Below, piece after piece: positions 13,769 through 33,562 of a stretch of 64,000 nt of DNA. Numbering within the stretch: position 1 is the stretch's first letter; the number at the start of each line of letters is the position of its first letter. Both the position numbers and the translations under genes were made by a program. The DNA is taken from NCBI GenBank assembly GCA_947447375.1, contig CANFJB010000007.1, positions 48,280 through 112,279 of the forward strand. Reading direction: 5' to 3'. The notes beneath the pieces were generated by a model, which was not told the origin of the DNA, made no database searches, and saw nothing but the letters and a program-made list of their open reading frames with translations. The stretch comes from Bacteroidota bacterium. GTDB taxonomy: Bacteria; Bacteroidota; Bacteroidia; Flavobacteriales; Flavobacteriaceae.

Positions 13769-13836
13769 GGAGCTATTTCCTGCTTTCCGTTCCACTCCTC
13801 GCTAAAAAGCGAGGGAGTTCACTGCAATCAGGGCTA
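13769..13836 (+). repeat. 68-bp structured intergenic repeat (REP/MITE-like), copy 1
   Basis: GGAGCTATTTCCTGCT...TCCTCGC-TAAAAA-GCGAGGGA...ATCAGGGCTA; a homologous 68-bp copy lies at 32727-32794 on the minus strand. Confidence 0.8.
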
Positions 13837-13930
13837 AAACCGTTTCGATTTCTATTTGATGAAAATTCAAATATTCAAATTTCCTAGTTCTATTATCAAA
13901 TTTATTTTAGCGCAAACCAATTTTAATATC

Positions 13931-22790: not shown

Positions 22791-23663
22791 ATGAGTGTTT
22801 TAGTAAATAAAGATTCTAAAATAATTGTTCAAGGTTTTACAGGTAGTGAGGGTACTTTCCACGCTTCTCAAATGATTGAATACGGAACAAATGTTGTTGG
22901 TGGAGTAACTCCAGGAAAAGGAGGAACTACTCACTTAGATCGTCCTGTTTTCAATACTGTAAAAGATGCTGTTGATCAAGTTGGAGCTGATACAACTATC
23001 ATTTTTGTACCGCCTGCTTTTGCTGCTGATGCAATTATGGAAGCTGCAGATGCAGGAATTAAAGTAATTATTACCATTACTGAAGGAATTCCTGTTGCCG
23101 ATATGATTAAAGCGAATCAATATATTAAAGGTAAAGATTGTAGATTAATAGGTCCAAACTGCCCAGGAGTAATTACTCCAGGTGAAGCAAAAGTAGGTAT
23201 TATGCCTGGTTTTGTTTTCAAAAAAGGAACAGTAGGAATCGTTTCAAAATCTGGAACATTGACTTATGAAGCTGCAGACCAAGTAGTAAAACAAGGTTTA
23301 GGAATCACAACTGCTATTGGAATTGGCGGTGATCCAATTATTGGAACTACTACTAAACAAGCCGTTGAATTATTAATGAACGATCCAGAAACTAAATGCA
23401 TTGTAATGATCGGTGAAATTGGTGGTCAATTAGAAGCTGATGCTGCAAAATGGATTAAAGCTGATGGAAATCGCAAACCTGTTGTAGGTTTTATTGCTGG
23501 TGAAACAGCTCCAAAAGGAAGAACAATGGGACACGCTGGTGCAATTGTTGGCGGTGCTGATGATACTGCAGAAGCTAAAAAAAGAATCATGAGAGAATGT
23601 GGAATTCACGTGGTTGACTCTCCAGCTGAAATTGGTAAAAAAGTAAAAGAAGTATTGGGATAA
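22791..23663 (+). CDS. sucD: Succinate--CoA ligase alpha subunit
   Basis: [39 protein letters not shown] (phospho-His). Confidence 0.98.
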
Positions 23664-23741: not shown

Positions 23742-24170
23742 ATGTATAAAGAATTAAAAAGTATAAAAAATAAGAATCAATTTCAATTTGATTTGAATGA
23801 TAACCTTGAAGAAGTTTGTAATGCTCCTGATGCAGCAAGTGGTATTTTCTTAGTTTATGATATTTCAAATGAAGAAAAAGAACTTATAATGGTTGGTTCA
23901 ACAGGAACTGTTCAAAATGATGGAACTCTAAAAAGCAAAAATGGTGGTTTGTATGACAAAATTGTGAACGGACATCAATTTGCCAAAACAGGACGTAAAT
24001 ATTCTTGGCCTGCACAAATGAAAAAAGAATCAATTGATAAATTAGAAGTTTATTGGTATGAAACTTTTAATGATAAAAACAAAATCATCCCTACATTTAT
24101 TGAAGGACAAATACTTCAAAATTTCTTGACTGAGTTCAATAAATTGCCAAAATGGAATGTAGCATTCTAA
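23742..24170 (+). CDS. Hypothetical protein, distant GIY-YIG-like
   Basis: SGIFLVY...LIMVGSTG, with C-terminal IEGQIL and LPKWN resembling the GIY..YIG..E..N layout. Confidence 0.45.
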   Translation: MYKELKSIKNKNQFQFDLNDNLEEVCNAPDAASGIFLVYDISNEEKELIMVGSTGTVQNDGTLKSKNGGLYDKIVNGHQFAKTGRKYSWPAQMKKESIDKLEVYWYETFNDKNKIIPTFIEGQILQNFLTEFNKLPKWNVAF

Positions 24171-24171
24171 T

Positions 24172-24199
24172 AAAAAAAGCTCCAATTGGAGCTTTTTTT
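24172..24199. terminator. Bidirectional terminator closing the ECF/MbnP/YHYH operon
   Basis: Perfect 28-bp palindrome AAAAAAAGCTCCAATTGGAGCTTTTTTT between convergent genes. Confidence 0.9.
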
Positions 24200-25577
24200 A
24201 TTTTTTAAGAATTACTTTATATGTTTTGACATTATCTTCAGAAGCTATTTTTAAAAAATAAATTCCATTATAAATGGTATCTGTTTCAAAATAACAAATT
24301 GTACTTCCTTGGAAAAATTCTTTAGAGGCAATTATTCTTCCTTGTTCATCAACCAAATCAGCTTTTAAGTTTTCTGAAATCATTTCACTTGATTGAATAA
24401 TTATCAGTTCACCAGCTGGGTTGGGGTAGATTTTGAAATTCAATTTATCAAAATTAAAATTGGTATTTCCCATCACCGGATTATAAGTCAAAACCGTTTC
24501 TGTTATTGGGGTAACTGTTGGTGCATTCATATTTGTAGCCGATTTAACTCCATAATAATAAGGCCCTACAACATAGGGATAAACAGAATTATAATTTTGA
24601 TCTACAGTAGTAAAATAGCAATAAGTACCATTGGGATATTGTGGTGTTTTGCAAAAACGACCATTGTGAACATCTAAATATTCACTTCCAGTATTTGCTA
24701 CGTACTCATAATCTTCTCGATACCATCCTATTGGAAATGAAGTGTTTACTGGCGGACCATCAACAACATCTGTTCCGTCAGCGTAAACATTTCTTGTAGT
24801 AATATTTCGCTCTCTATAACTTGATTTCATTCTTGTAATTCCACTATTAACATCTAACGGATTGGTATATCCATACGGACCATAAATTGGATACCCATCA
24901 TATGCAAATCCTAATAATGGAGAGTGGACAGTAGGATTTATTACATACAAACCATCAGAAGCATATGGTGAACAAACAGTAGAAAGTACTACCAAATCCA
25001 TATTAAATGCAGAAGGATTTTGATGATGATGATAACGACTTTGTGCATCTGGATGTCCTTTTGAACAATCAAATCCAACACGTTCTGCTAATACTCCATT
25101 TCTATTCCAAATCCCATCACCTCCACCTGTGTTCGGAGCATCAGAAGCTGTTGAAGCTTTGTAAGAAAACCCATCGCCATAACTGTAAAGAGCAACGCCA
25201 TTAATAAATACACCAATATTTGCTGCACCTGTTGCTTGCGAAGGAACATTTCCTAATGTACTTACAACTGGGTTTAAAGGAAATTTAAATAGTGCGTTTT
25301 GAACTCCAGCAACCGTTCTGGGATTATTATAAAATGGACCAGTTACAAATGAAGGAATCCCTTGGGTACTTATGTATGCAGAAGTGGTGGAATATTGCAC
25401 TGTTTGAACATTTGCAGGAATTGCTGAATCTATCAAAATAGTGGAACTACCCGATAAATAGTGTCTTCCTGTAATACCTGTATTGTTTATTAACCACGAA
25501 GTAATTATAGGATTGGTTTGTGCAAAAGAATTTATTACAAACAAATATAATAAAAGAAAAGAGAAAATATTTTTCAT
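24198..25577 (-). CDS. YHYH-domain protein with T9SS type A sorting domain (paralog 2)
   Basis: Signal peptide; FDCSKGHPDAQSRYHHHQNP, GFAYDGYPIYGP, LDVHNGRF; CTD IYPNP...GIYFLKI...KVILKK. Confidence 0.85.
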   Translation of the reverse strand: MKNIFSFLLLYLFVINSFAQTNPIITSWLINNTGITGRHYLSGSSTILIDSAIPANVQTVQYSTTSAYISTQGIPSFVTGPFYNNPRTVAGVQNALFKFPLNPVVSTLGNVPSQATGAANIGVFINGVALYSYGDGFSYKASTASDAPNTGGGDGIWNRNGVLAERVGFDCSKGHPDAQSRYHHHQNPSAFNMDLVVLSTVCSPYASDGLYVINPTVHSPLLGFAYDGYPIYGPYGYTNPLDVNSGITRMKSSYRERNITTRNVYADGTDVVDGPPVNTSFPIGWYREDYEYVANTGSEYLDVHNGRFCKTPQYPNGTYCYFTTVDQNYNSVYPYVVGPYYYGVKSATNMNAPTVTPITETVLTYNPVMGNTNFNFDKLNFKIYPNPAGELIIIQSSEMISENLKADLVDEQGRIIASKEFFQGSTICYFETDTIYNGIYFLKIASEDNVKTYKVILKK

Positions 25578-25580
25578 AGT

Positions 25581-26930
25581 TTATTTATCAATGATTACTT
25601 TAAAAGTCTTTGATTCTTTATCATTAGAAATTTTCAAGAAATACAATCCATTGTAAATAGTAGCTATTTCAATTATACTCAATGTACTACCTTGCAGGAT
25701 TTGACTTGTTTTAACCACTTTTCCTAATTCATCAATTAATTCTACTTTCAAATTACTTTCAAGCATTTGAGATTGAATAGCAATAAAATCTTGGGCTGGG
25801 TTAGGAGCTATAGTTATATTGAAACTAGAATCGTTAAAATTGGTTGTTCCCAGAGTAGTAACAGCTTCAGTTATTGAGGTTACTTTTAAAGCTGTTTTAT
25901 TTCCATAAAATGTTGGTCCCACAACATAAGGATAAGCTGAATTATGATTGGCATCAACAGTAGCAAAATAACAGTAAATTCCATTAGGATATTCCGGAGT
26001 TATACAAAAACGTCCATTGTGTTCATCTAAATAACTTGGATCTGTAGGATGTGAAATAAATTCGTAGTCTTCTCTAAAATATCCAAGTGGATAAGTTGAA
26101 CTCACAGCAGGTCCATCCAAAACGTCTGTTCCATCAGCCCAAACGGTTCTGGTAGTTATATTTCTATATTGGTAACCTGATTTCATTCTAACTATTCCTC
26201 CAGTTCCATTAGTATTTGCATAAGCATAAGCACCGTAAATAGGAAAACCGTCATAGGCAAATCCTATTAAAGGAGAATGTTCACTTGGATTGATAACATA
26301 CAATCCATCTGAAGGATAGGTTGAACATACAGTAGAAATAACATTGATATCTAATCCAAAAGCGCTTGGATTTTGATGGTGATGGTAATTACCCATTGCA
26401 GGATGAGCTTTAGCACAGTCAAAACCTATTCGTTCCCCCACAACAGCATCTCTATTCCATTTCCCATCTCCTGTACAAGGCGGATTTATTGGGCCTCCAC
26501 AAAGCGAACTTGATGCATTTCGCCATGACACACCATCTCGATAATCAAATAATGCAACACCATTTTTAAATAATCCAATATTACCACCAGTAGTTGCTGT
26601 TGCTGTTCCTGTATTTTGAGTTGGATTTAATGGAAATTTAAATATTGCTCCAGCTTGTGTAGTTGCAAGTGATGGATTTCCATCCAAAAATGGTCCTGTA
26701 ATATAAGCTGGAATCCCATTTGTGGTAACATAAACCCAATTCGCAGAATATTGAACTGTTTGCACATTTGCTAAAACCGCATCAACAATTGGAGTTGAAT
26801 TTCCAGAAACATAATGTCTTCCAGTAATTCCAGTTGTGTTTTGCAACCATTTAGTAATTATAGGGTTGGTTTGCCCTAATAGTGTGCATCCAAATAATAA
26901 CATCCCAAAAAGAGTAATTTTTTGTTTCAT
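25581..26930 (-). CDS. YHYH-domain protein with T9SS type A sorting domain (paralog 1)
   Basis: Signal peptide; FDCAKAHPAMGNYHHHQNP, GFAYDGFPIYG, LDEHNGRF; CTD APNP...GLYFLKI...KVIIDK. Confidence 0.85.
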   Translation of the reverse strand: MKQKITLFGMLLFGCTLLGQTNPIITKWLQNTTGITGRHYVSGNSTPIVDAVLANVQTVQYSANWVYVTTNGIPAYITGPFLDGNPSLATTQAGAIFKFPLNPTQNTGTATATTGGNIGLFKNGVALFDYRDGVSWRNASSSLCGGPINPPCTGDGKWNRDAVVGERIGFDCAKAHPAMGNYHHHQNPSAFGLDINVISTVCSTYPSDGLYVINPSEHSPLIGFAYDGFPIYGAYAYANTNGTGGIVRMKSGYQYRNITTRTVWADGTDVLDGPAVSSTYPLGYFREDYEFISHPTDPSYLDEHNGRFCITPEYPNGIYCYFATVDANHNSAYPYVVGPTFYGNKTALKVTSITEAVTTLGTTNFNDSSFNITIAPNPAQDFIAIQSQMLESNLKVELIDELGKVVKTSQILQGSTLSIIEIATIYNGLYFLKISNDKESKTFKVIIDK

Positions 26931-26950
26931 AATTTGATGGTATATTTTAT

Positions 26951-27574
26951 TTATTTCATTTTGTCGATAATTCCTCTATAAAAAATCCGGCAACCAAATG
27001 GCTCTGAATTTTTTATAAAAACCTCATTACCTTTTAATAATTGATCAACAGCATTAGTTAAAAAATGATTTTTCACATTTTGATAATCTCCCGCATTATC
27101 ATCTATAGAACCTTCATATTTGACAATATATTTATTGTTTTGTTTCCAAATAACGAAAGCTTGTGGAGTAACAGAAGCTTTGAAATTCTTTCCAACCACT
27201 TGCTTTTTATCTTGTAAATAAGGAAAATTCAATTTATCAGTTTTAACTTTATTTTGCATTTTTTTAAATGATTCTTCAGCATAAGCCAAAGTATCCATTG
27301 AATTAATTGCAATTAAAGGAATACCTACAGTTTTATATTTATCACTCATTTGATTCAAACGCTGAGAATAAAATTTTGCCATTGGGCATTTATTACACGT
27401 AAATATAATAATAAAACCTTTAGCGTTTTTATAATCAGACAAAGAAACCCAATGATTTGTTTTGGCGCATTTTAATTTGAAATCAGAAACCTGTTTTTCC
27501 TTTACAATTAAATTAAAACTGCAAAGAACAAAAAGAATACTGATAAATAATAATTGGAAAAATTGCTTTTTCAT
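26951..27574 (-). CDS. Exported redoxin (AhpC/TSA-like thioredoxin fold)
   Basis: Signal peptide; IFTCNKCP (CxxC); FPYLQD, ASVTPQAF, YEGSIDD, GCRI. Confidence 0.85.
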   Translation of the reverse strand: MKKQFFQLLFISILFVLCSFNLIVKEKQVSDFKLKCAKTNHWVSLSDYKNAKGFIIIFTCNKCPMAKFYSQRLNQMSDKYKTVGIPLIAINSMDTLAYAEESFKKMQNKVKTDKLNFPYLQDKKQVVGKNFKASVTPQAFVIWKQNNKYIVKYEGSIDDNAGDYQNVKNHFLTNAVDQLLKGNEVFIKNSEPFGCRIFYRGIIDKMK

Positions 27575-27576
27575 AG

Positions 27577-29292
27577 TTATTTTTTGATAAACTTTCTTGT
27601 AGTAAGGCTTTTCGTTTGTTTATCCATCATTTGAAAGGTATAAACTCCTGATTCTAATGAAGAAATATCGATTCCGTTTTGCCATTCTGGTTGTGGTAAC
27701 ATCATTACAACTCTTCCTGTAATTGTTGAAATAGTTACATAATAGATCTCAGTATTGTCATCTTTTAAATTAACATATAAAAGGTTACTTGATGGATTTG
27801 GATACAAACTAAAACTAGTATTTGTTTCACTTTGATTAGTTCCTAAAGCACCTGAAACAATAAATTGTCCCATCATACCACCATCTTCATGACCACCAAA
27901 ATGGCAGTGGTACATATAGGGATGGGTTACATCGGAATCAGCGAAATCGTCAAATTTTGCAACGAAAGTTACAGACTCATTTCTTGGTAAATAAAAGGTG
28001 TCTTTCCAGCCACTTTCGTGTGAACCAACGGCAGTAGCAATTCCATTTCTTGCCACTATTTTAAACTCAACATCATGTAAATGAAATGAATGTCCAAATA
28101 CAGCGTTATTAGTTACAGTCCATTTTTCGATATCATTTAAATTAACTACTTTAGGAGTCATCGTCAATGAATAGGTGACATTATCAAAATTAAAAGGAAC
28201 ACTTGCAGGACCTGGATTTCCATTTGTTACAGCTATAGCTCTTGTAACAGTAGCATCTGCTGCTGTCCAATAAGTATTTGATATCAAAGTTGAAGGAAGA
28301 GCTGTTATTGGAGTTGTTGCTGTGGTAGTTGCGGCAACATTTATATGTAATACATTAAAATCTATATTATTTAATAAACTTCCAAAATCACCAGATGTAT
28401 TAGGTTCACCACCAGGGAAACCTAATGTTTGTCCTGAATTATACGCTTTTAAATCTATACTACTACCAACAGTGTCTCCGCCTAAATTCACCATTATTTC
28501 TATTCTCTCACCAACTAATAATTTTACTCTGGTTACAGCAACTGGTGCATTTAATAGGCCTCCATCATTACCAATAATGTAAAAAGTTCGATTATCACTA
28601 AATCCTAAATTATAGGCTCTTTCAATTTCAGCATTTAAAATTCTCATCCTTACATATTGTTTTGGTAAACTAATTTGTGCATTTGGTGTTCCATTAGACA
28701 ACATATAATCTCCATATACACGTGTAGTACTAACAAAAGTATTAGTAGTAGGTGTATAACTTCTACTGGTTAATGCTAAAACAATATCATCAACTCCATA
28801 AGTTCTTGGCAATGCCAATGCCGCTTCTTGAGGGTCTTTAACAATTATAAATCCTCCAATACCTTTAGTCATTTGCGCTTGAGTAGTAGTATGCAAATGA
28901 GGATGATACCATAAAGTAGTGGCTTGGTTTTTTACTGTCCAATACGGTTGCCAAAGAGTTCCAGCAGGTATAACTTGATGTGGACCTCCATCCATTACTG
29001 CAGGCAAATGCATTCCATGCCAGTGAACAGTTGTAGATTCATTTAAATTGTTGGTTACATTCATATGAACCAAATCACCTTTATTAATAAATAATGTTGG
29101 CCCCCAAAAAGTCTCATTATTGATCGAACCTGTAATAGTTTGATTTCCTGTAACTAATTGTTTAGTAGATTCATGAATATTCAAATTGAAAGTAGTTCCA
29201 TACAACGCTTCAGGCATTGTCATATTTGAATATTGAGCATTTATTACTGTAGATGTTAATGCTATAATTGAGGCTAGAATTATTTTTTTCAT
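27577..29292 (-). CDS. Multicopper oxidase with T9SS type A sorting domain
   Basis: All four Cu motifs present: HWHG, WYHPH, HSFHLH, HCHFGGHEDGGM (T1 ligands H-C-H-M); CTD LYPNP...GVYTFQM...RKFIKK. Confidence 0.93.
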   Translation of the reverse strand: MKKIILASIIALTSTVINAQYSNMTMPEALYGTTFNLNIHESTKQLVTGNQTITGSINNETFWGPTLFINKGDLVHMNVTNNLNESTTVHWHGMHLPAVMDGGPHQVIPAGTLWQPYWTVKNQATTLWYHPHLHTTTQAQMTKGIGGFIIVKDPQEAALALPRTYGVDDIVLALTSRSYTPTTNTFVSTTRVYGDYMLSNGTPNAQISLPKQYVRMRILNAEIERAYNLGFSDNRTFYIIGNDGGLLNAPVAVTRVKLLVGERIEIMVNLGGDTVGSSIDLKAYNSGQTLGFPGGEPNTSGDFGSLLNNIDFNVLHINVAATTTATTPITALPSTLISNTYWTAADATVTRAIAVTNGNPGPASVPFNFDNVTYSLTMTPKVVNLNDIEKWTVTNNAVFGHSFHLHDVEFKIVARNGIATAVGSHESGWKDTFYLPRNESVTFVAKFDDFADSDVTHPYMYHCHFGGHEDGGMMGQFIVSGALGTNQSETNTSFSLYPNPSSNLLYVNLKDDNTEIYYVTISTITGRVVMMLPQPEWQNGIDISSLESGVYTFQMMDKQTKSLTTRKFIKK

Positions 29293-29308
29293 AGTATTTG
29301 GATTTATT

Positions 29309-29340
29309 TTATTTAGACGAATTTATTATCAAATTCTTGC
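29309..29340 (-). promoter_or_regulatory. Putative ECF sigma promoter upstream of the multicopper oxidase
   Basis: Minus strand GCAAG-AATTTGATAATAAATT(16)-CGTCTAAATAA; same elements and spacing as 32055-32086. Confidence 0.75.
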
Positions 29341-29354
29341 ATTTTTTTTATAAT

Positions 29355-30374
29355 TTATCTTGGATAGGAAAAGCGTTTATCAAATAAAAATTCAGTATCA
29401 GTCAAAGTTAATAAGAAAGCAACTAAATCAACTCGTTGATTATCAGTTAAATTCATTGGCTTTTGAAGCTGTTTTGGTAGGTTTTTATTATTTCCAAGTG
29501 AATTGTAATGCTTGATAACTTCTGTTAGTTTTTTAAATCTACCATCGTGCATATAGGGATTTGTAAATTGGATATTTCGCAACGTAGGAACTTTAAATTT
29601 AAGATAATCTTCTGATTTTTCAGTAATTCTTTGTCTTCCAATATCGTTTAAAGTAGTATCTAACGGAATGCCATTATTTTCATATTTTCCATTTGTAAAT
29701 AAGGGTTCTGTATGACAAGAAGCACAATTATTTTTAAACAATTGATATCCATTTTGCTCTTGATTAGTGAAAACGGCTTCTTTCCGCATTACTTTATCGT
29801 ATTTTGAATTGGCGCTTATCAATAGTAATTCAAACTGAGAGAGAGCTTTTAAAACCCGCTGGCCTGTAATATTTTCATCTCCAAAGGCAGCGAAGAATAA
29901 CGATTTGTATTTGTCGCTTTTTTGAAGTTTATTAACCACATTAGCCAAAGTTTCATTCATTTCTACCGGACTTGTAATAGGATTTAAGGGCTGTACATCT
30001 AAATGATTCACTCCGCCATCCCACATAAAAGTTTTTGACCAAGCTAAATTCATCATTGTCATTGAATTTCTTGTTCCTATTTTACCATCTATTCCATGAC
30101 TTAAAGAATGATCAACATGGGTAAATCCGGTTGCTTGCAAATGACAGCTTGCACAAGATATTGTCGAATCTTTCGATAAAATCGGATCGTAAAATAATTG
30201 TCTCCCCAATTGAAATCCTTCTTCTGTAAGTGGATTTTTAGAAAAATCATAATTGGGTTTTTGCCAACCTTTTGGAATTTGAAAATATAGAGGAGTAGGA
30301 TTTAATAATGAAAATGCAAGCGAAAAAAACAATACGCTAACTATTAATATACTATAGGTGTATTTAGTTTTCAT
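29355..30374 (-). CDS. Di-heme cytochrome c peroxidase family (MbnH/MauG-like)
   Basis: Two CxxCH (SCASCH, NCASCH), LGRQLFYDPILS, WDG, FKVPTLRN, YMHDGRF; likely start ATG 30374 (MKTKY). Confidence 0.9.
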   Translation of the reverse strand: MKTKYTYSILIVSVLFFSLAFSLLNPTPLYFQIPKGWQKPNYDFSKNPLTEEGFQLGRQLFYDPILSKDSTISCASCHLQATGFTHVDHSLSHGIDGKIGTRNSMTMMNLAWSKTFMWDGGVNHLDVQPLNPITSPVEMNETLANVVNKLQKSDKYKSLFFAAFGDENITGQRVLKALSQFELLLISANSKYDKVMRKEAVFTNQEQNGYQLFKNNCASCHTEPLFTNGKYENNGIPLDTTLNDIGRQRITEKSEDYLKFKVPTLRNIQFTNPYMHDGRFKKLTEVIKHYNSLGNNKNLPKQLQKPMNLTDNQRVDLVAFLLTLTDTEFLFDKRFSYPR

Positions 30375-31074
30375 TTGGCAAAAATTCTGAAATTGAGAAC
30401 ATTGATTTGGCTTTATCTGCAAGATCCATGGCTTTTGATCCTGGAATCATAATACTATTTGTTTCAGATAATTTAATTTGATTGAATAATCGAGAAAGAT
30501 CAACATTTATTTCAAAATTTGAAATTCTAGGTTCTAATTCAATTGTTCTAATTGCATAATATGGTTTTAAATAACCGCCAACGTGAAATTGAAATGCATT
30601 ATTTCTTGTTTTGCAACTTGAACTTTTTCCCTCAATTTTAAAGTTGATGTAACCGCTTTGCCATGCCCAATACATTCCTTTGGTTGGATCTAAATCGCCA
30701 GATAATGCTCCTGAAACACTTGAAGTACTGTCTATTCCAACAGAAAAAACAACTTTTTTAATTTCTAAATTCGATTTTTTAGGTAAGTAAATTAGTTGAG
30801 AATTGGGTTCTTCTAAATCTATTAGGTGATAGCTATTATCTTCTGATATTACTGAATTATCTTTTAGAATCAGTTTAATATTTGATACATAAAACCGAAA
30901 AGATTCAATTTGCAAAGTGTCTTTTGTTGACGAAATGTATTTTTTATTTTGAATAAGCGATTCGTTTTCATATTTAATAGTAAATCGCAATGGAAAATTA
31001 TCTTTTTTTTCTTGTGAATAAATCAAATGAAAAAAAAGAGTGAAAACAAAAACATATTGTAATTTACTTCTCAT
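30364..31074 (-). CDS. mbnP: MbnP family copper-binding protein
   Basis: Signal peptide; FRFYVSNI, GDLDPTKGMYWAWQSGYINFKIEG (WxW motif), FHVGGY; overlaps the MbnH-like peroxidase gene. Confidence 0.8.
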   Translation of the reverse strand: MRSKLQYVFVFTLFFHLIYSQEKKDNFPLRFTIKYENESLIQNKKYISSTKDTLQIESFRFYVSNIKLILKDNSVISEDNSYHLIDLEEPNSQLIYLPKKSNLEIKKVVFSVGIDSTSSVSGALSGDLDPTKGMYWAWQSGYINFKIEGKSSSCKTRNNAFQFHVGGYLKPYYAIRTIELEPRISNFEINVDLSRLFNQIKLSETNSIMIPGSKAMDLADKAKSMFSISEFLPNEN

Positions 31075-31783
31075 CTAAATCTCTTGGTGGAGGTGGAGGA
31101 CGATTTTCATCACCAGGTCTTCCCGGTCTATCTTCACCCAAGTGAGGTGGCGGAGGTCTATTTCCCTCTCTCGGTCCTCGTGGATGATCTCCATCTCTAG
31201 GCGGTGGTGGAGGTCGGCGCTCATCCATAGGTGGAGGAGGCGGAGGAGTAAAATTTGATCCGTCCTTATTTTCTTTATTGTTATTATCAAAATCAGGTCT
31301 TGGAGGATGTCTAAATTCAGTACGAGGTCTTCGGTTTTGATTTGAAAATAATTTTTCTAATTCCTCTGTTAATGAATTATAAGCTTCAAGTTGTGATTTA
31401 GTACATAGGATTTTAATATCTTGGAAATGCTTGAAATTAGCTTCTTCAATTCTTTTTTGGTTTACCAATGTCAATTGGATTAAACTATCTTTAGCTTTAT
31501 TATTTACAATTGGCTGTTTCAATTGTGTGTATAAAACGGCTTTTATTTCTCTGCTATTATTATTTAATGAATCTATTGTATTTCTATATACCTTAATAAT
31601 ATCCTCATATTTCTGAATTTGGTTGGCATCAAAATGCAACTTTTCAATGATAATATCTTTGGGCTTTTTGCCTAAATCATGAGGGTAGTCATTTGGTCTT
31701 GATATATATAGAAAACCAATTATTCCTATATTTAATAGTACAAGCCCGATAACTGAATAGGTTAATAATTTTATCTTATCCAT
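31064..31783 (-). CDS. Membrane-anchored periplasmic helical protein (Spy/CpxP or CnrX-like) with Pro/Arg/Asp-rich tail
   Basis: N-terminal TM, IIEKLHFDANQ...HFQDIK.LCT..Q helical domain, about 90-aa PPPPP-rich C-terminus. Confidence 0.7.
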   Translation of the reverse strand: MDKIKLLTYSVIGLVLLNIGIIGFLYISRPNDYPHDLGKKPKDIIIEKLHFDANQIQKYEDIIKVYRNTIDSLNNNSREIKAVLYTQLKQPIVNNKAKDSLIQLTLVNQKRIEEANFKHFQDIKILCTKSQLEAYNSLTEELEKLFSNQNRRPRTEFRHPPRPDFDNNNKENKDGSNFTPPPPPPMDERRPPPPPRDGDHPRGPREGNRPPPPHLGEDRPGRPGDENRPPPPPRDLDEK

Positions 31784-31785
31784 TT

Positions 31786-32052
31786 TTAGTACAATTGATT
31801 CGTATTTGAAATAGTTGAAATAACTGTTTCTGTTTGCGTATTAGTTTTAGCTAAATTTGATTTTAATAAATTAATATTAATTGAAATTAAAAGAGCAAAA
31901 GTAGCTGCAGCAACAAAAATCCATTTATTTGAAACTTTATTTTCTAAATTGATTTTGTTTTGAATTTTATCGAAAAGCAATTTATTCGGAAGAACTTTAA
32001 CCATTCCGTTGGTGCTTTCCATTATTTCGAGGGTCCAATTTTCAGCTTTCAT
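31786..32052 (-). CDS. Small single-TM putative anti-sigma factor
   Basis: 88 aa; cytoplasmic N-terminus, one TM (WIFVAAATFALLISINI); directly downstream of the ECF sigma. Confidence 0.65.
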   Translation of the reverse strand: MKAENWTLEIMESTNGMVKVLPNKLLFDKIQNKINLENKVSNKWIFVAAATFALLISININLLKSNLAKTNTQTETVISTISNTNQLY

Positions 32053-32054
32053 AA

Positions 32055-32086
32055 TTATTTAGACGAATATTAATTTTTATTCTTGC
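32055..32086 (-). promoter_or_regulatory. Putative ECF sigma promoter upstream of the anti-sigma gene (overlaps the sigma 3' end)
   Basis: Minus strand GCAAG-AATAAAAATTAATATT(16)-CGTCTAAATAA; same elements and spacing as 29309-29340. Confidence 0.75.
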
Positions 32087-32621
32087 GATATTCTTCAAAT
32101 TTGTTTGAAATTTTTTCTTTTAGGGTTGTTTTTGCTCTAAAAACTAAGGATTCTACAGATGAAATACTCAAATTCATAATTTCAGCAATTTCAGGATTAC
32201 TCAATCCATCGACTTTTGAAAGCAGAAAAGCTGTTTTTTGATTTTCACCTAATTGATTGATAATTTCAAAAAGTACTTTTGCTTTTTCTTTGTTCTCCAA
32301 TAAAACTCCGGGATGTTCAAAATTGGATACATTTAAAATCTCTAATTCATTTTGACTTTTTTTACCGAAAATAAAAAATCTTTTTTGGCTGTTTTTATGT
32401 TTGATAAAATCAAGGCATTTGTTGATTGTGATTCGGTAAATCCATGTTTTTAGTGATGATTTTTCTTGAAACGTACTCAATGAATTATTTATTTGAATGA
32501 ATACGTCTTGAGTAATTTCTTCAGCATCTTCAACGTTTTGCAGATAATTGAGCGCTAAATTATAAACCAATACACTGTATTGATTGTATAATTTTTCGAA
32601 GTCTCTATTATCTAATGCCAT
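32070..32621 (-). CDS. ECF RNA polymerase sigma factor
   Basis: DAEEITQDVF, SSLKTWIYRITINKCLD (region 2); LSNPEIAEIMNLSISSVESLVFRAK (region 4). Confidence 0.95.
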   Translation of the reverse strand: MALDNRDFEKLYNQYSVLVYNLALNYLQNVEDAEEITQDVFIQINNSLSTFQEKSSLKTWIYRITINKCLDFIKHKNSQKRFFIFGKKSQNELEILNVSNFEHPGVLLENKEKAKVLFEIINQLGENQKTAFLLSKVDGLSNPEIAEIMNLSISSVESLVFRAKTTLKEKISNKFEEYRKNKN

Positions 32622-32704
32622 ATTGCAATAGTATGAAAATTAATTGTTTATTAATAGTATGCTTTGAATTTTGGTTTGAATTTTTTTTAAAATAGGAATT
32701 GTTA

Positions 32705-32712
32705 TATATTTG
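32705..32712 (+). promoter_or_regulatory. Sigma-A -7 box upstream of fabG
   Basis: TATATTTG; places repeat copy 2 inside the predicted fabG 5' UTR. Confidence 0.5.
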
Positions 32713-32726
32713 AACGAAATATTTTT

Positions 32727-32794
32727 TAGCCCTGATGGAAGGGAAAATCCCTCGCTTTTTTGCGAGGATTGGAATGACAGCAGGAAATAGCTTC
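32727..32794 (-). repeat. 68-bp structured intergenic repeat (REP/MITE-like), copy 2
   Basis: Reverse complement GAAGCTATTTCCTGCT...TCCTCGC-AAAAAA-GCGAGGGA...ATCAGGGCTA; homologous to 13769-13836. Confidence 0.8.
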
Positions 32795-32815: not shown

Positions 32816-33562
32816 ATGAAATTATTACAAGGAAAAACTGCCATTATCACAGGTGCTAGCCGTGGAATTGGTAAAGGAATTGCGGAGATTTTCGCTAAAA
32901 ACGGTGCAAATATAGCTTTCACTTATAGTTCGTCTGTAGAATCGGCATTGGCTTTGGAAAAAGAACTTAATGAAATGGGCGTGAAAGCAAAAGGATATCA
33001 ATCGGATGCTTCCGATTTTAATGAAGCCCAAGCTTTTGTAGATGCAGTTTTAGAAGATTTTGAAACTGTTGATGTGTTGATAAATAATGCGGGAATTACT
33101 AAAGATAACCTTTTGATGCGTATGACTGAGGAAGATTTTGACAAAGTAATCGATGTTAATTTAAAGTCGGTTTTTAATATGACTAAGGCGATTCAAAAAA
33201 CATTTTTGAAACAACGTTCAGGTTCAATTATAAACATGAGTAGTGTTGTTGGAGTTAAAGGAAACGCTGGCCAAACCAATTATTCAGCTTCAAAAGCGGG
33301 TGTTATTGGATTTTCAAAATCGGTTGCACTAGAGTTAGGATCACGAAATATTCGTTGTAATGTTATCGCTCCTGGTTTTATTGAAACTGAAATGACAGCG
33401 AAATTAAATGAAGATGTAGTTAAGGGTTGGAGAGACGGAATTCCTTTGAAACGTGGCGGTTCTACTGAAGATGTTGCGAATGCTTGTTTGTTTTTTGCAT
33501 CAGATATGAGCTCATTTGTAACGGGGCAAGTATTGAATGTTTGTGGCGGAATGCTAACTTAA
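32816..33562 (+). CDS. fabG: 3-oxoacyl-ACP reductase FabG
   Basis: ITGASRGIG, NNAGITKDNL, SSVVG, YSASK, NVIAPGFIET. Confidence 0.96.
   Translation: MKLLQGKTAIITGASRGIGKGIAEIFAKNGANIAFTYSSSVESALALEKELNEMGVKAKGYQSDASDFNEAQAFVDAVLEDFETVDVLINNAGITKDNLLMRMTEEDFDKVIDVNLKSVFNMTKAIQKTFLKQRSGSIINMSSVVGVKGNAGQTNYSASKAGVIGFSKSVALELGSRNIRCNVIAPGFIETEMTAKLNEDVVKGWRDGIPLKRGGSTEDVANACLFFASDMSSFVTGQVLNVCGGMLT

Follow-up and report, generated by a model that had tools for sequence, protein, structure and literature searches.

A candidate ECF σ factor module combining MbnP/MbnH with secreted YHYH proteins in Bacteroidota

We analyzed a 64-kb stretch of DNA from a Flavobacteriaceae bacterium (contig CANFJB010000007.1; the whole stretch is hereafter called the window, and coordinates refer to it unless another locus is named). 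Its G+C content is approximately 31%, the nearest relatives of its proteins are from Flavobacterium, and matching DNA occurs in lake-water metagenomes. Nine minus-strand open reading frames (ORFs) at 24198-32621, located between fabG (plus strand, 32816-33562) and sucD (22791-23663), code in order of transcription for an extracytoplasmic function (ECF)-type σ factor, a putative anti-σ factor, a putative periplasmic sensor, an MbnP-family protein, an MbnH/MauG-like di-heme enzyme, a multicopper oxidase, a redoxin and two YHYH proteins, designated YHYH_a and YHYH_b (Table 1). The conserved core of this cluster is formed by the ECF σ factor, the anti-σ factor, the sensor, MbnP, MbnH and a YHYH protein carrying a type IX secretion system (T9SS) sorting domain; the multicopper oxidase and the redoxin are an optional accessory cassette, present in ∼15–25% of related loci. 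We interpret the locus as a self-regulating ECF module for extracytoplasmic metal, most probably copper, that metallates secreted proteins, and assign this interpretation a probability of about 0.5. Its regulatory and compositional part is held with considerable confidence, and its copper-metallation part is an even chance at best.

The evidence for the core comes from two surveys carried out in opposite directions, together covering approximately 160 related loci. In the first, one genome per species was scanned with a YHYH alignment, which yielded 80 Bacteroidota loci that were annotated by BLASTP with the window proteins; counts were taken from the 47 loci in which the upstream sequence was 5.5 kb or longer, considering features on the same strand. 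MbnP and MbnH (together MbnPH) were found upstream of YHYH in 42 of these loci, the ECF σ factor in 35, the sensor in 29 and a multicopper oxidase in only 7. The reciprocal survey was anchored on MbnP in 80 metagenome loci and detected YHYH downstream in 33 of 36, the σ factor upstream in 34 of 40 and the oxidase in 9 of 36. Thus, conservation of the neighborhood, which the first-pass annotation of the window had proposed as a check, was observed from both sides. Because YHYH follows MbnPH in ∼90% of loci whichever protein serves as the anchor, it is a conserved partner and not an add-on, and a second YHYH copy is found in some loci only. In addition, 22 long loci labeled as Crocinitomicaceae, Sphingobacteriales, Sediminibacterium, Winogradskyella and others retain MbnP-MbnH-YHYH without the fabG and sucD flanks of Flavobacterium, and the linkage is therefore more than inherited synteny. 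Cultured species that carry the cluster include F. paronense, F. cheonanense JCM 17069, F. stagni WWJ-16, F. pedocola and F. mekongense.

The regulatory genes and YHYH also occur together where MbnPH and the oxidase are both absent (loci L003 and L168). The latter, on a plasmid of Chondrinema litorale (Cytophagia), codes for the σ factor, a 105-aa protein, a sensor homolog, a distant 313-aa YHYH protein and a TlpA-like redoxin, and has no MbnPH. YHYH is therefore regarded as the oldest constant target of the regulatory trio. A 214-aa protein encoded behind the Chondrinema YHYH gene was considered as a possible MbnP relative and rejected, no relationship being detectable.

The regulatory part of the interpretation is further based on a promoter-like motif. 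The strict form of this motif, CAAG[AT][AT]-N14-CGTCTA (CAAGAA-N14-CGTCTAA in the window), had exactly two matches in the 64-kb window compared to 0.01 expected from shuffled sequences, and both were on the minus strand inside the cluster. The first (P1) overlaps the last σ codons with its -35 part, and its -10 part lies in the 17-nt spacer that follows, ending 7 nt before the anti-σ ATG. The second (P2) is in the 62-nt gap between MbnH and the oxidase, 21 nt before the oxidase ATG. The AAG-N16-CGTC arrangement resembles that typical of ECF promoters (AAC-N16-CGT type). In related loci, the gap between MbnH and the secreted cargo contains a strongly conserved two-block sequence whether the next gene codes for YHYH, the oxidase or a CotH protein; the strict motif was present in 44 of 90 distinct gaps of this kind, with a spacer of 14 nt in 42 of the 44. 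Among 1.8 Mb of related loci there were 104 exact matches, of which 43 were located before anti-σ genes, 34 before YHYH, 14 before the oxidase, 2 before CotH, 1 before MbnP and 10 elsewhere. Most of these ten lie at P1- or P2-type positions where annotation had missed a gene, so that such positions account for no fewer than 94, and probably for some 100, of the 104 matches. The stop region of the σ gene carried the motif with no more than one mismatch in 58 of 71 loci, and no random control segment came within two mismatches. Related motifs also precede the gene for the 105-aa protein (GAAGGAA-N14-TGTCTAA) and the YHYH gene (GAAGGG...GGTCTAA) of Chondrinema. A generic σ70 promoter scan of the window, which returned 44 sites compared to 53 in shuffles, was uninformative.

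No ECF-type motif was found upstream of the σ gene in the window, and one with two or fewer mismatches occurred at this position in only 7 of 71 loci; classical autoregulation of the σ factor was therefore rejected for this lineage. Instead, a TA(G/C)TATTG element just upstream of the σ ATG is conserved in the clade of the window. The Bacteroidota housekeeping -7 consensus is TAnnTTTG, and the σ gene is possibly expressed separately, from the TACTATTG box next to its ATG. Nearly all matches being at P1 and P2 positions, the cluster therefore probably consists of two σ-dependent units, with the σ gene outside both. The ECF control that the first-pass annotation had suggested is supported by a motif found only twice in the window, both times in the cluster and at conserved positions; the single operon implied there gives way to what are probably two units. 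In lake metatranscriptomes, contigs covered the cluster at a depth of ∼1–10 versus 46–465 for sucD, and spanned the YHYH_a/redoxin and redoxin/oxidase junctions; contigs of this kind can neither locate transcript starts nor prove operon structure. In one run (X28), a single RNA contig with a depth of 200 joined position 24269 to 29133, skipping 4863 nt and with 21 nt on one side, and is probably a chimeric or chance join.

The σ factor itself is a clear member of the ECF group (Sigma70_r2, E 5.6e-17; Sigma70_r4_2, E 3.2e-15; TIGR02937, sigma70-ECF, 102 bits versus a cutoff of 42.9). The small protein encoded next to it, a position kept across related loci, contains a single hydrophobic, predicted transmembrane segment (approximately residues 44–64) and neither His nor Cys. 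Pfam and NCBIfam profile searches returned no family match for it and no sequence similarity to CnrY was found; its N-terminal cytoplasmic region and a C-terminal NQLY are conserved across 60 orthologs, and its predicted architecture is that of a CnrY-like anti-σ factor. For the third protein, positional orthologs that are 47–48% identical to the window copy pass PF13801 (30.0 and 42.1 bits versus a cutoff of 29.2), and the window protein is homologous to the protein at the equivalent position in Chondrinema (hhalign 96.8%), which weakly matches LTXXQ. Across 86 sensor orthologs, Gln109, Glu113, His119 and Cys127 were conserved in at least 90% and His50 in at least 70% of sequences; His50, Glu113, His119 and Cys127 are candidate ligands. 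A PDB sequence search with the sensor gave nothing useful. The sensor of the window's clade also has a specific 90-residue tail (approximately residues 150–239, 31064-31330) that is rich in Pro, Arg and Asp and contains PPPPP repeats. This tail is absent from orthologs such as those in L002 and L003, which end at approximately residue 160.

These three genes resemble cnrYXH, the nickel/cobalt-sensing ECF system of Cupriavidus metallidurans with the gene order cnrY-cnrX-cnrH, in which an ECF σ factor, a tiny single-pass anti-σ factor lacking a zinc-binding motif, and a membrane-anchored helical protein from the Metal_resist family are likewise encoded by adjacent genes. In contrast to cnrYXH, the order here is σ factor, anti-σ factor, sensor; the sensor of the window misses the Pfam cutoff and has the Pro-rich tail; a Cys is among its conserved candidate ligands; and the ECF-type promoter lies behind the σ gene, which is not autoregulated in this lineage. 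The outputs also differ, being MbnPH and T9SS cargo here and a resistance-nodulation-division efflux pump in the Cnr system. The parallel with CnrH/CnrY/CnrX drawn in the first-pass annotation is thus sound for the architecture and for the family of the sensor orthologs, but the third protein of the window itself reaches no Pfam threshold.

MbnP matched PF20243 (E 8e-47; 160 bits versus a cutoff of 27). Met134, Trp136, Trp138 and His164 were invariant among 13 diverse orthologs, and the two Trp residues, which form a WxW motif, are the only ones in the protein. Searches of PDB sequences with MbnP and with an MbnP profile gave nothing useful, and the relationship with solved MbnP emerged by fold comparison only: an AlphaFold2 model of moderate quality (mean predicted local distance difference test score, pLDDT, 78.8) significantly matched only six chains of 7L6G (E 2.4e-8 to 1.7e-7, TM-score 0.54–0.57), the next best match having an E of 0.16. 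Judged by the motif, the Met, WxW and His residues are putative counterparts of the ligands in 7L6G. MbnH contains two CASCH heme motifs and matched CCP_MauG (E 8.7e-57); its best solved relative, aligned over the full length, was 6E1C (E 4.9e-41), which we take to be the Methylosinus MbnH. The assignment of the two genes to MbnP and MbnH in the first-pass annotation is therefore upheld. Like the pair in the methanobactin operon of Methylosinus trichosporium OB3b (7L6G, 6E1C), the two genes are adjacent, with MbnP first, and share the WxW, Met and His residues, the fold and the di-heme partner. However, the cluster has no methanobactin precursor, biosynthesis genes or TonB-dependent transporter, and the constant partner here is a T9SS-secreted YHYH protein.

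In Methylosinus, the copper ligands of MbnP are His, Met, solvent and a kynurenine, the last being produced by MbnH from the WxW motif, and the function of MbnP/MbnH proteins was considered to need further work (PMC11951088). Two other systems offer partial parallels. MopE/CorA of methanotrophs combine a surface or secreted copper-binding protein, whose copper site contains kynurenine, with a MauG-like di-heme enzyme (PMC3621798, PMC11951088), and so provide an analogy for a surface-exposed metal protein that works with a periplasmic maturase; they differ from the present system in their folds, in the absence of T9SS secretion and in an expression that is repressed by copper. MbnPH-like and AhpC_TSA genes were also reported in copper-homeostasis operons headed by CruR homologs, and the characterized Bordetella CruR operon is copper-repressed (PMC9426467). 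These CruR (DUF2946)-headed operons of Proteobacteria share with the present cluster MbnPH-like genes, AhpC/TSA-type redoxins and copper-handling proteins, but employ a copper-sensing upstream ORF and Rho termination and usually include a TonB-dependent transporter, in place of the ECF trio and T9SS cargo found here.

A different reading sees in the same genes a general response to envelope, secretion or oxidative stress, in which the Spy/CpxP-like protein would act as a chaperone or would detect oxidants or misfolded cargo in the periplasm, the di-heme peroxidases, redoxin and oxidase would clear peroxide or repair thiols, and YHYH would be a stress-induced surface protein. The sensor family (Metal_resist/LTXXQ clan) does contain the envelope-stress chaperones Spy and CpxP as well as ZraP, and the weak LTXXQ match of the Chondrinema homolog points the same way. 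The cluster also codes for proteins with peroxidase and peroxiredoxin folds, many loci have a second MauG/MbnH-like enzyme behind YHYH, stand-alone YHYH genes of Crocinitomicaceae lie beside an exported Fe/Mn superoxide dismutase, and the cargo is heterogeneous. However, the nearest solved relative of MbnH is an MbnH, MbnP folds like the copper-binding MbnP and keeps Met, WxW and His invariant, the redoxin has a thioredoxin-type CxxC motif, and YHYH elsewhere pairs with metal-permease-like proteins. We consider a stress response unlikely as an explanation of the whole locus.

Both YHYH proteins are clear members of PF14240 (YHYH_a, E 1.1e-55; YHYH_b, E 7e-52; 189 and 177 bits versus a cutoff of 25) with a YHHH motif. 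YHYH_b is 55% identical to YHYH_a, and none of the invariant His and Asp residues has been lost from it. This large family comprises 2096 clusters at 50% identity and is represented in bacteria, diatoms, cyanophage tails and giant viruses. The first-pass annotation had described these proteins as His-rich and suggested a scaffold function, which their composition (2.0% and 1.5% His) does not support. Instead, an alignment of 55 diverse family members revealed a discrete set of invariant residues, Trp158, His176, His183, His185, Ser219 and Asp227 (YHYH_a numbering), of which the three His and the Asp are a candidate for a single metal site. The AlphaFold2 model of YHYH_a is mostly β and of high confidence (pLDDT 94.7, predicted TM-score 0.93). 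A Foldseek comparison of this model with the PDB found no match to a solved fold (best E 0.87, TM-score 0.13) and a PDB sequence search with YHYH_a gave nothing useful, but the viral structure library contained matches to proteins annotated as YHYH in cyanophages (structural or baseplate proteins) and giant viruses.

The YHYH domain has been called enigmatic; from its fusions with phage tail proteins and lectins, Iyer et al. (2021) predicted a hydrolase function and a Zn site comprising three His and one Asp (PMC7824862). Accordingly, YHYH might be a secreted metal-dependent hydrolase acting on an extracellular polymer or on competitors, to which MbnPH and the regulators are tied by shared regulation or cofactor supply, and the locus would then serve degradation and not metal homeostasis. 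The occurrence of the fold in cyanophage baseplates and giant viruses, and of enzymes such as an arylsulfotransferase and a sulfatase among the optional neighboring cargo, would suit such a function. However, neither a hydrolase fold or motif nor a PDB match was detected for YHYH, and its link with MbnPH is tight and reciprocal. We regard this reading as quite improbable.

The genomic context of YHYH outside Bacteroidota also argues against a hydrolase. In four genomes, covering Proteobacteria and Deinococcota and including Deinococcus and Hydrogenophaga, a short form of YHYH (∼320 aa, without a T9SS domain) flanks a HupE_UreJ_2 membrane protein, often in the order YHYH-permease-YHYH, beside an OmpR-type two-component system (L166, 5779-7855; L169/L170; L171, 5001-6825; L172, 2912-5978), a pattern typical of metal handling; one of these loci also carries an AhpC/TSA redoxin. 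We know of no description of this association. These sets resemble the cluster in the window in having YHYH as an exported output beside a dedicated envelope-sensing regulator and a metal-related partner, and differ in that the partner is permease-like and the regulator is a histidine kinase/response regulator pair, as opposed to MbnPH and the ECF trio. Considering the discrete His/Asp set, the regulator devoted to envelope sensing and the link with a metal-related protein (MbnP or a HupE/UreJ-like permease), we favor for YHYH a role in extracytoplasmic metal handling over a hydrolase. A more specific proposal, which we put forward tentatively and consider doubtful in its entirety, is that YHYH represents an unrecognized class of extracytoplasmic metalloproteins, probably copper-binding in Bacteroidota and with a fold unlike solved structures, for which MbnPH would be the dedicated metallation or maturation system. 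In this case, either MbnP would give copper to YHYH before T9SS export, or the flanking MauG-like enzymes, MbnH and the second di-heme protein found in many loci, would oxidize a conserved residue such as Trp158, and the ECF promoter behind the σ gene would feed back on the anti-σ factor only.

The multicopper oxidase occupies the position directly behind P2 in the window. All four copper-ligand motifs (HWHG, HPHLH, HSFHLH and HCHFGGHEDGGM) were present in its translation, and its best solved relatives were CueO/copper efflux oxidases (E 2.7e-71 to 1.6e-60), although it scored below the NCBIfam CueO equivalog cutoff (308 versus 525 bits). CueO, the periplasmic cuprous oxidase of E. coli, has the same three cupredoxin domains and copper-ligand motifs but a Tat signal; the oxidase here has a Sec-type signal and a T9SS domain, and its destination is therefore the cell surface or the medium. 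The first-pass annotation had seen this enzyme as the center of the system: the module would load copper into a surface-secreted oxidase, MbnP would capture copper after maturation by MbnH, and the YHYH proteins would be co-exported as partners or His-rich scaffolds. An enzyme that needs four copper atoms and, being exported by Sec and T9SS, must gain them outside the cytoplasm would be a natural client of such a module. However, most loci lack the oxidase while MbnPH and YHYH persist, a CotH protein can fill its slot, YHYH is not His-rich, and YHYH keeps the σ trio where MbnPH and the oxidase are both missing. An oxidase-centered module is therefore very improbable.

The redoxin exceeded the Pfam cutoffs (AhpC-TSA, E 5e-15; Redoxin, E 5e-10), and the NCBIfam models for the TlpA/ResA-like proteins ResA and StoA were far below theirs. 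Of 21 loci with its gene, 18 have it directly behind the oxidase and the others behind YHYH. Overall, the slot between MbnH and YHYH was empty, contained the oxidase and redoxin, or contained a CotH-lamin-tail protein with a T9SS domain. Optional genes behind YHYH code for a second MbnH/MauG-like enzyme (in many loci), a T9SS arylsulfotransferase or a second YHYH. The CotH kinase-like protein, of 754 aa with a lamin-tail and a T9SS domain, was found behind P2 in place of the oxidase-redoxin pair at L018 (7732-9996), L057 (7706-9985) and L080 (7731-9995), and also in L132, L162 and L101. All three T9SS proteins of the window exceeded the TIGR04183 (T9SS type A sorting) cutoff of 23, with 40.4, 48.1 and 40.7 bits, and the N-termini of MbnP, MbnH, the oxidase, the redoxin and both YHYH proteins are hydrophobic, consistent with export. 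Both observations agree with the first-pass annotation, which had counted three products with T9SS sorting domains and listed MbnP, the peroxidase and the redoxin as exported.

Our preferred interpretation, a metal-responsive ECF module, would operate as follows. The σ factor would be transcribed alone from a housekeeping-type promoter and held by the small anti-σ factor. By analogy with CnrYXH, the sensor may read a periplasmic signal, probably copper status, through its conserved His, Glu, His and Cys positions, and act on the short periplasmic tail of the anti-σ factor that ends in NQLY, releasing the σ factor. Free σ factor would then use P1 and P2. Transcription from P1 would yield the anti-σ factor, the sensor, MbnP and MbnH, that is, negative feedback through the anti-σ factor only together with a periplasmic copper-binding pair, and transcription from P2 would yield the secreted cargo, here the oxidase, redoxin, YHYH_a and YHYH_b. 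As in Methylosinus, MbnH is expected to oxidize a Trp of the WxW motif of MbnP to kynurenine and thereby create a copper site with Met134 and His164. MbnP could then supply periplasmic copper to Sec-exported apo-YHYH in all cases, and to the apo-oxidase where present, during folding before T9SS export, with the redoxin keeping the relevant thiols in the right redox state. The gene content, family assignments, conserved core and both motifs are observed; the dependence on the σ factor, the nature of the signal and of the metal, the direction in which the metal moves and each protein-protein step are what we infer. We favor a logic in which availability of the metal turns on production of the secreted metalloproteins; a role in acquisition, induced by limitation, is nearly as likely.

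Several observations weigh against this interpretation. The cluster codes for no metal transporter, and part of the alternative cargo (the CotH kinase-like protein and the arylsulfotransferase) has no obvious link with copper. MbnP scored below the NCBIfam equivalog TIGR04052 (42 versus 140 bits), and the best NCBIfam match of MbnH, TIGR04039 (MbnH family), was below its cutoff as well (226 versus 363 bits); because both proteins fall short, the pair is best described as a genuine but divergent Bacteroidota subfamily, and in the MbnP model it is the WxW loop that has low confidence. The sensor of the window had no Pfam match at E ≤ 0.01, PF13801 was missing from the matches of a relaxed scan (E up to 10), and the sensor family includes general envelope-stress chaperones. 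We also infer that the promoter motif belongs to this particular σ factor, and one of the RNA runs (X26) may include DNA. Many of the surveyed loci are orthologous Flavobacterium loci, so that their conservation partly reflects common descent. Finally, the sole published prediction for YHYH is a Zn-dependent hydrolase (PMC7824862).

The literature searched contained no description of a link between YHYH and MbnPH. The constant coupling of MbnPH with a T9SS-secreted YHYH protein, an ECF-type promoter behind the σ gene and a modular cargo slot behind P2 all appear to be undescribed there. The locus gives YHYH its first testable context, with a constant genetic partner, a candidate sensor and two defined promoter sequences, and makes the functions of YHYH, and of MbnPH outside methanobactin producers, accessible to experiment. 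It also raises the general question of how T9SS cargo acquires a required metal cofactor in the periplasm.

Table 1. Genes and sequence elements of the ECF-MbnPH-YHYH cluster (window coordinates).
Feature	Coordinates	Strand	Basis
ECF-type σ factor, 183 aa, regions 2 and 4 only	32070..32621	-	Sigma70_r2, Sigma70_r4_2
Candidate housekeeping-type -7 box TACTATTG for the σ gene (low confidence)	32626..32633	-	TA(G/C)TATTG conservation
P1, ECF-type promoter motif CAAGAATAAAAATTAATATTCGTCTA	32060..32085	-	Motif match
Putative anti-σ factor, 88 aa	31786..32052	-	Architecture, position next to σ gene
Membrane-anchored periplasmic helical protein, putative sensor, 239 aa	31064..31783	-	Orthologs of Metal_resist/LTXXQ (CnrX/ZraP/Spy-like) kind
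MbnP-family periplasmic protein, 236 aa	30364..31074	-	PF20243
MbnH/MauG-like di-heme enzyme, 339 aa counted from ATG	29355..30374	-	CCP_MauG
P2, ECF-type promoter motif CAAGAATTTGATAATAAATTCGTCTA	29314..29339	-	Motif match
CueO-like three-domain multicopper oxidase with T9SS type A domain, 571 aa	27577..29292	-	Cu-oxidase_3, Cu-oxidase_2, Por_Secre_tail
Redoxin, predicted to be exported and of thioredoxin fold, CNKC motif, 207 aa	26951..27574	-	AhpC-TSA, Redoxin
YHYH_a, YHYH and T9SS type A C-terminal domain, 449 aa	25581..26930	-	PF14240, Por_Secre_tail
YHYH_b, paralog with the architecture of YHYH_a, 459 aa	24198..25577	-	PF14240, Por_Secre_tail
Perfect palindrome A7-GCTCCAATTGGAGC-T7	24172..24199	.	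Read from sequence

The compact arrangement of the nine genes, as the first-pass annotation had given it, was found for all ORFs, with gaps of 2–62 nt and overlaps of 11 nt. Apart from the two gaps that contain P1 and P2, the anti-σ and sensor genes are separated by 2 nt, the oxidase and redoxin genes by 2 nt, redoxin and YHYH_a by 20 nt, and YHYH_a and YHYH_b by 3 nt. The sensor gene overlaps MbnP by 11 nt, and MbnP overlaps MbnH by 11 nt when the ATG at 30374 is used; the longest MbnH ORF begins at a TTG at 30422. The palindrome AAAAAAAGCTCCAATTGGAGCTTTTTTT at the end of the cluster, also noted in the first-pass annotation as a terminator, was read at 24172-24199, where it extends over the final two bases of the stop codon of YHYH_b (24198-24200). 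Located between convergent genes, it could form a bidirectional hairpin resembling an intrinsic terminator; an automatic terminator scan of the window did not list it. The convergent gene codes for a 142-aa protein without a family match (23742-24170, plus strand) that would have this terminator in common with the cluster. It is kept in many Flavobacterium loci and is well transcribed in lake metatranscriptomes (depth up to ∼60).

Two unusual arrangements were observed among the related loci. In Crocinitomicaceae/Lishizhenia-labeled metagenome-assembled genomes (L027, 9998-12430; L042, 9998-12429), YHYH is present alone, without MbnPH or the σ factor, and is convergent with a gene for an Fe/Mn superoxide dismutase of 338 aa, which begins with a signal-like segment and is extended at its C-terminus. 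In F. paronense, contig JAUFQN010000007.1 (L001) contains a second, inverted copy of a portion of the cluster, in which the MbnP and MbnH genes are fragmented. The large contig of this organism (L002) has one intact copy of the cluster, and the duplicate looks like an assembly artifact or a recent rearrangement.

Additional elements were detected near the start of the cluster. The Flavo-1 RNA motif (RF01705, gathering cutoff 42) occurs twice in the window, at 13772-13839 on the minus strand (56.3 bits) and at 32724-32791 on the plus strand (49.6 bits). The latter copy is in the divergent intergenic region between fabG and the σ gene, contains a terminator-like hairpin (32749-32768) and is kept in the closest related loci. 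In the same region (32700-32712) there is a TAnnTTTG-type box, CAAATATA on the minus strand, corresponding to TATATTTG on the plus strand. Most related loci have a box of this type on the opposite strand, approximately 100 nt upstream of the σ ATG; it probably represents the -7 element for fabG transcription.

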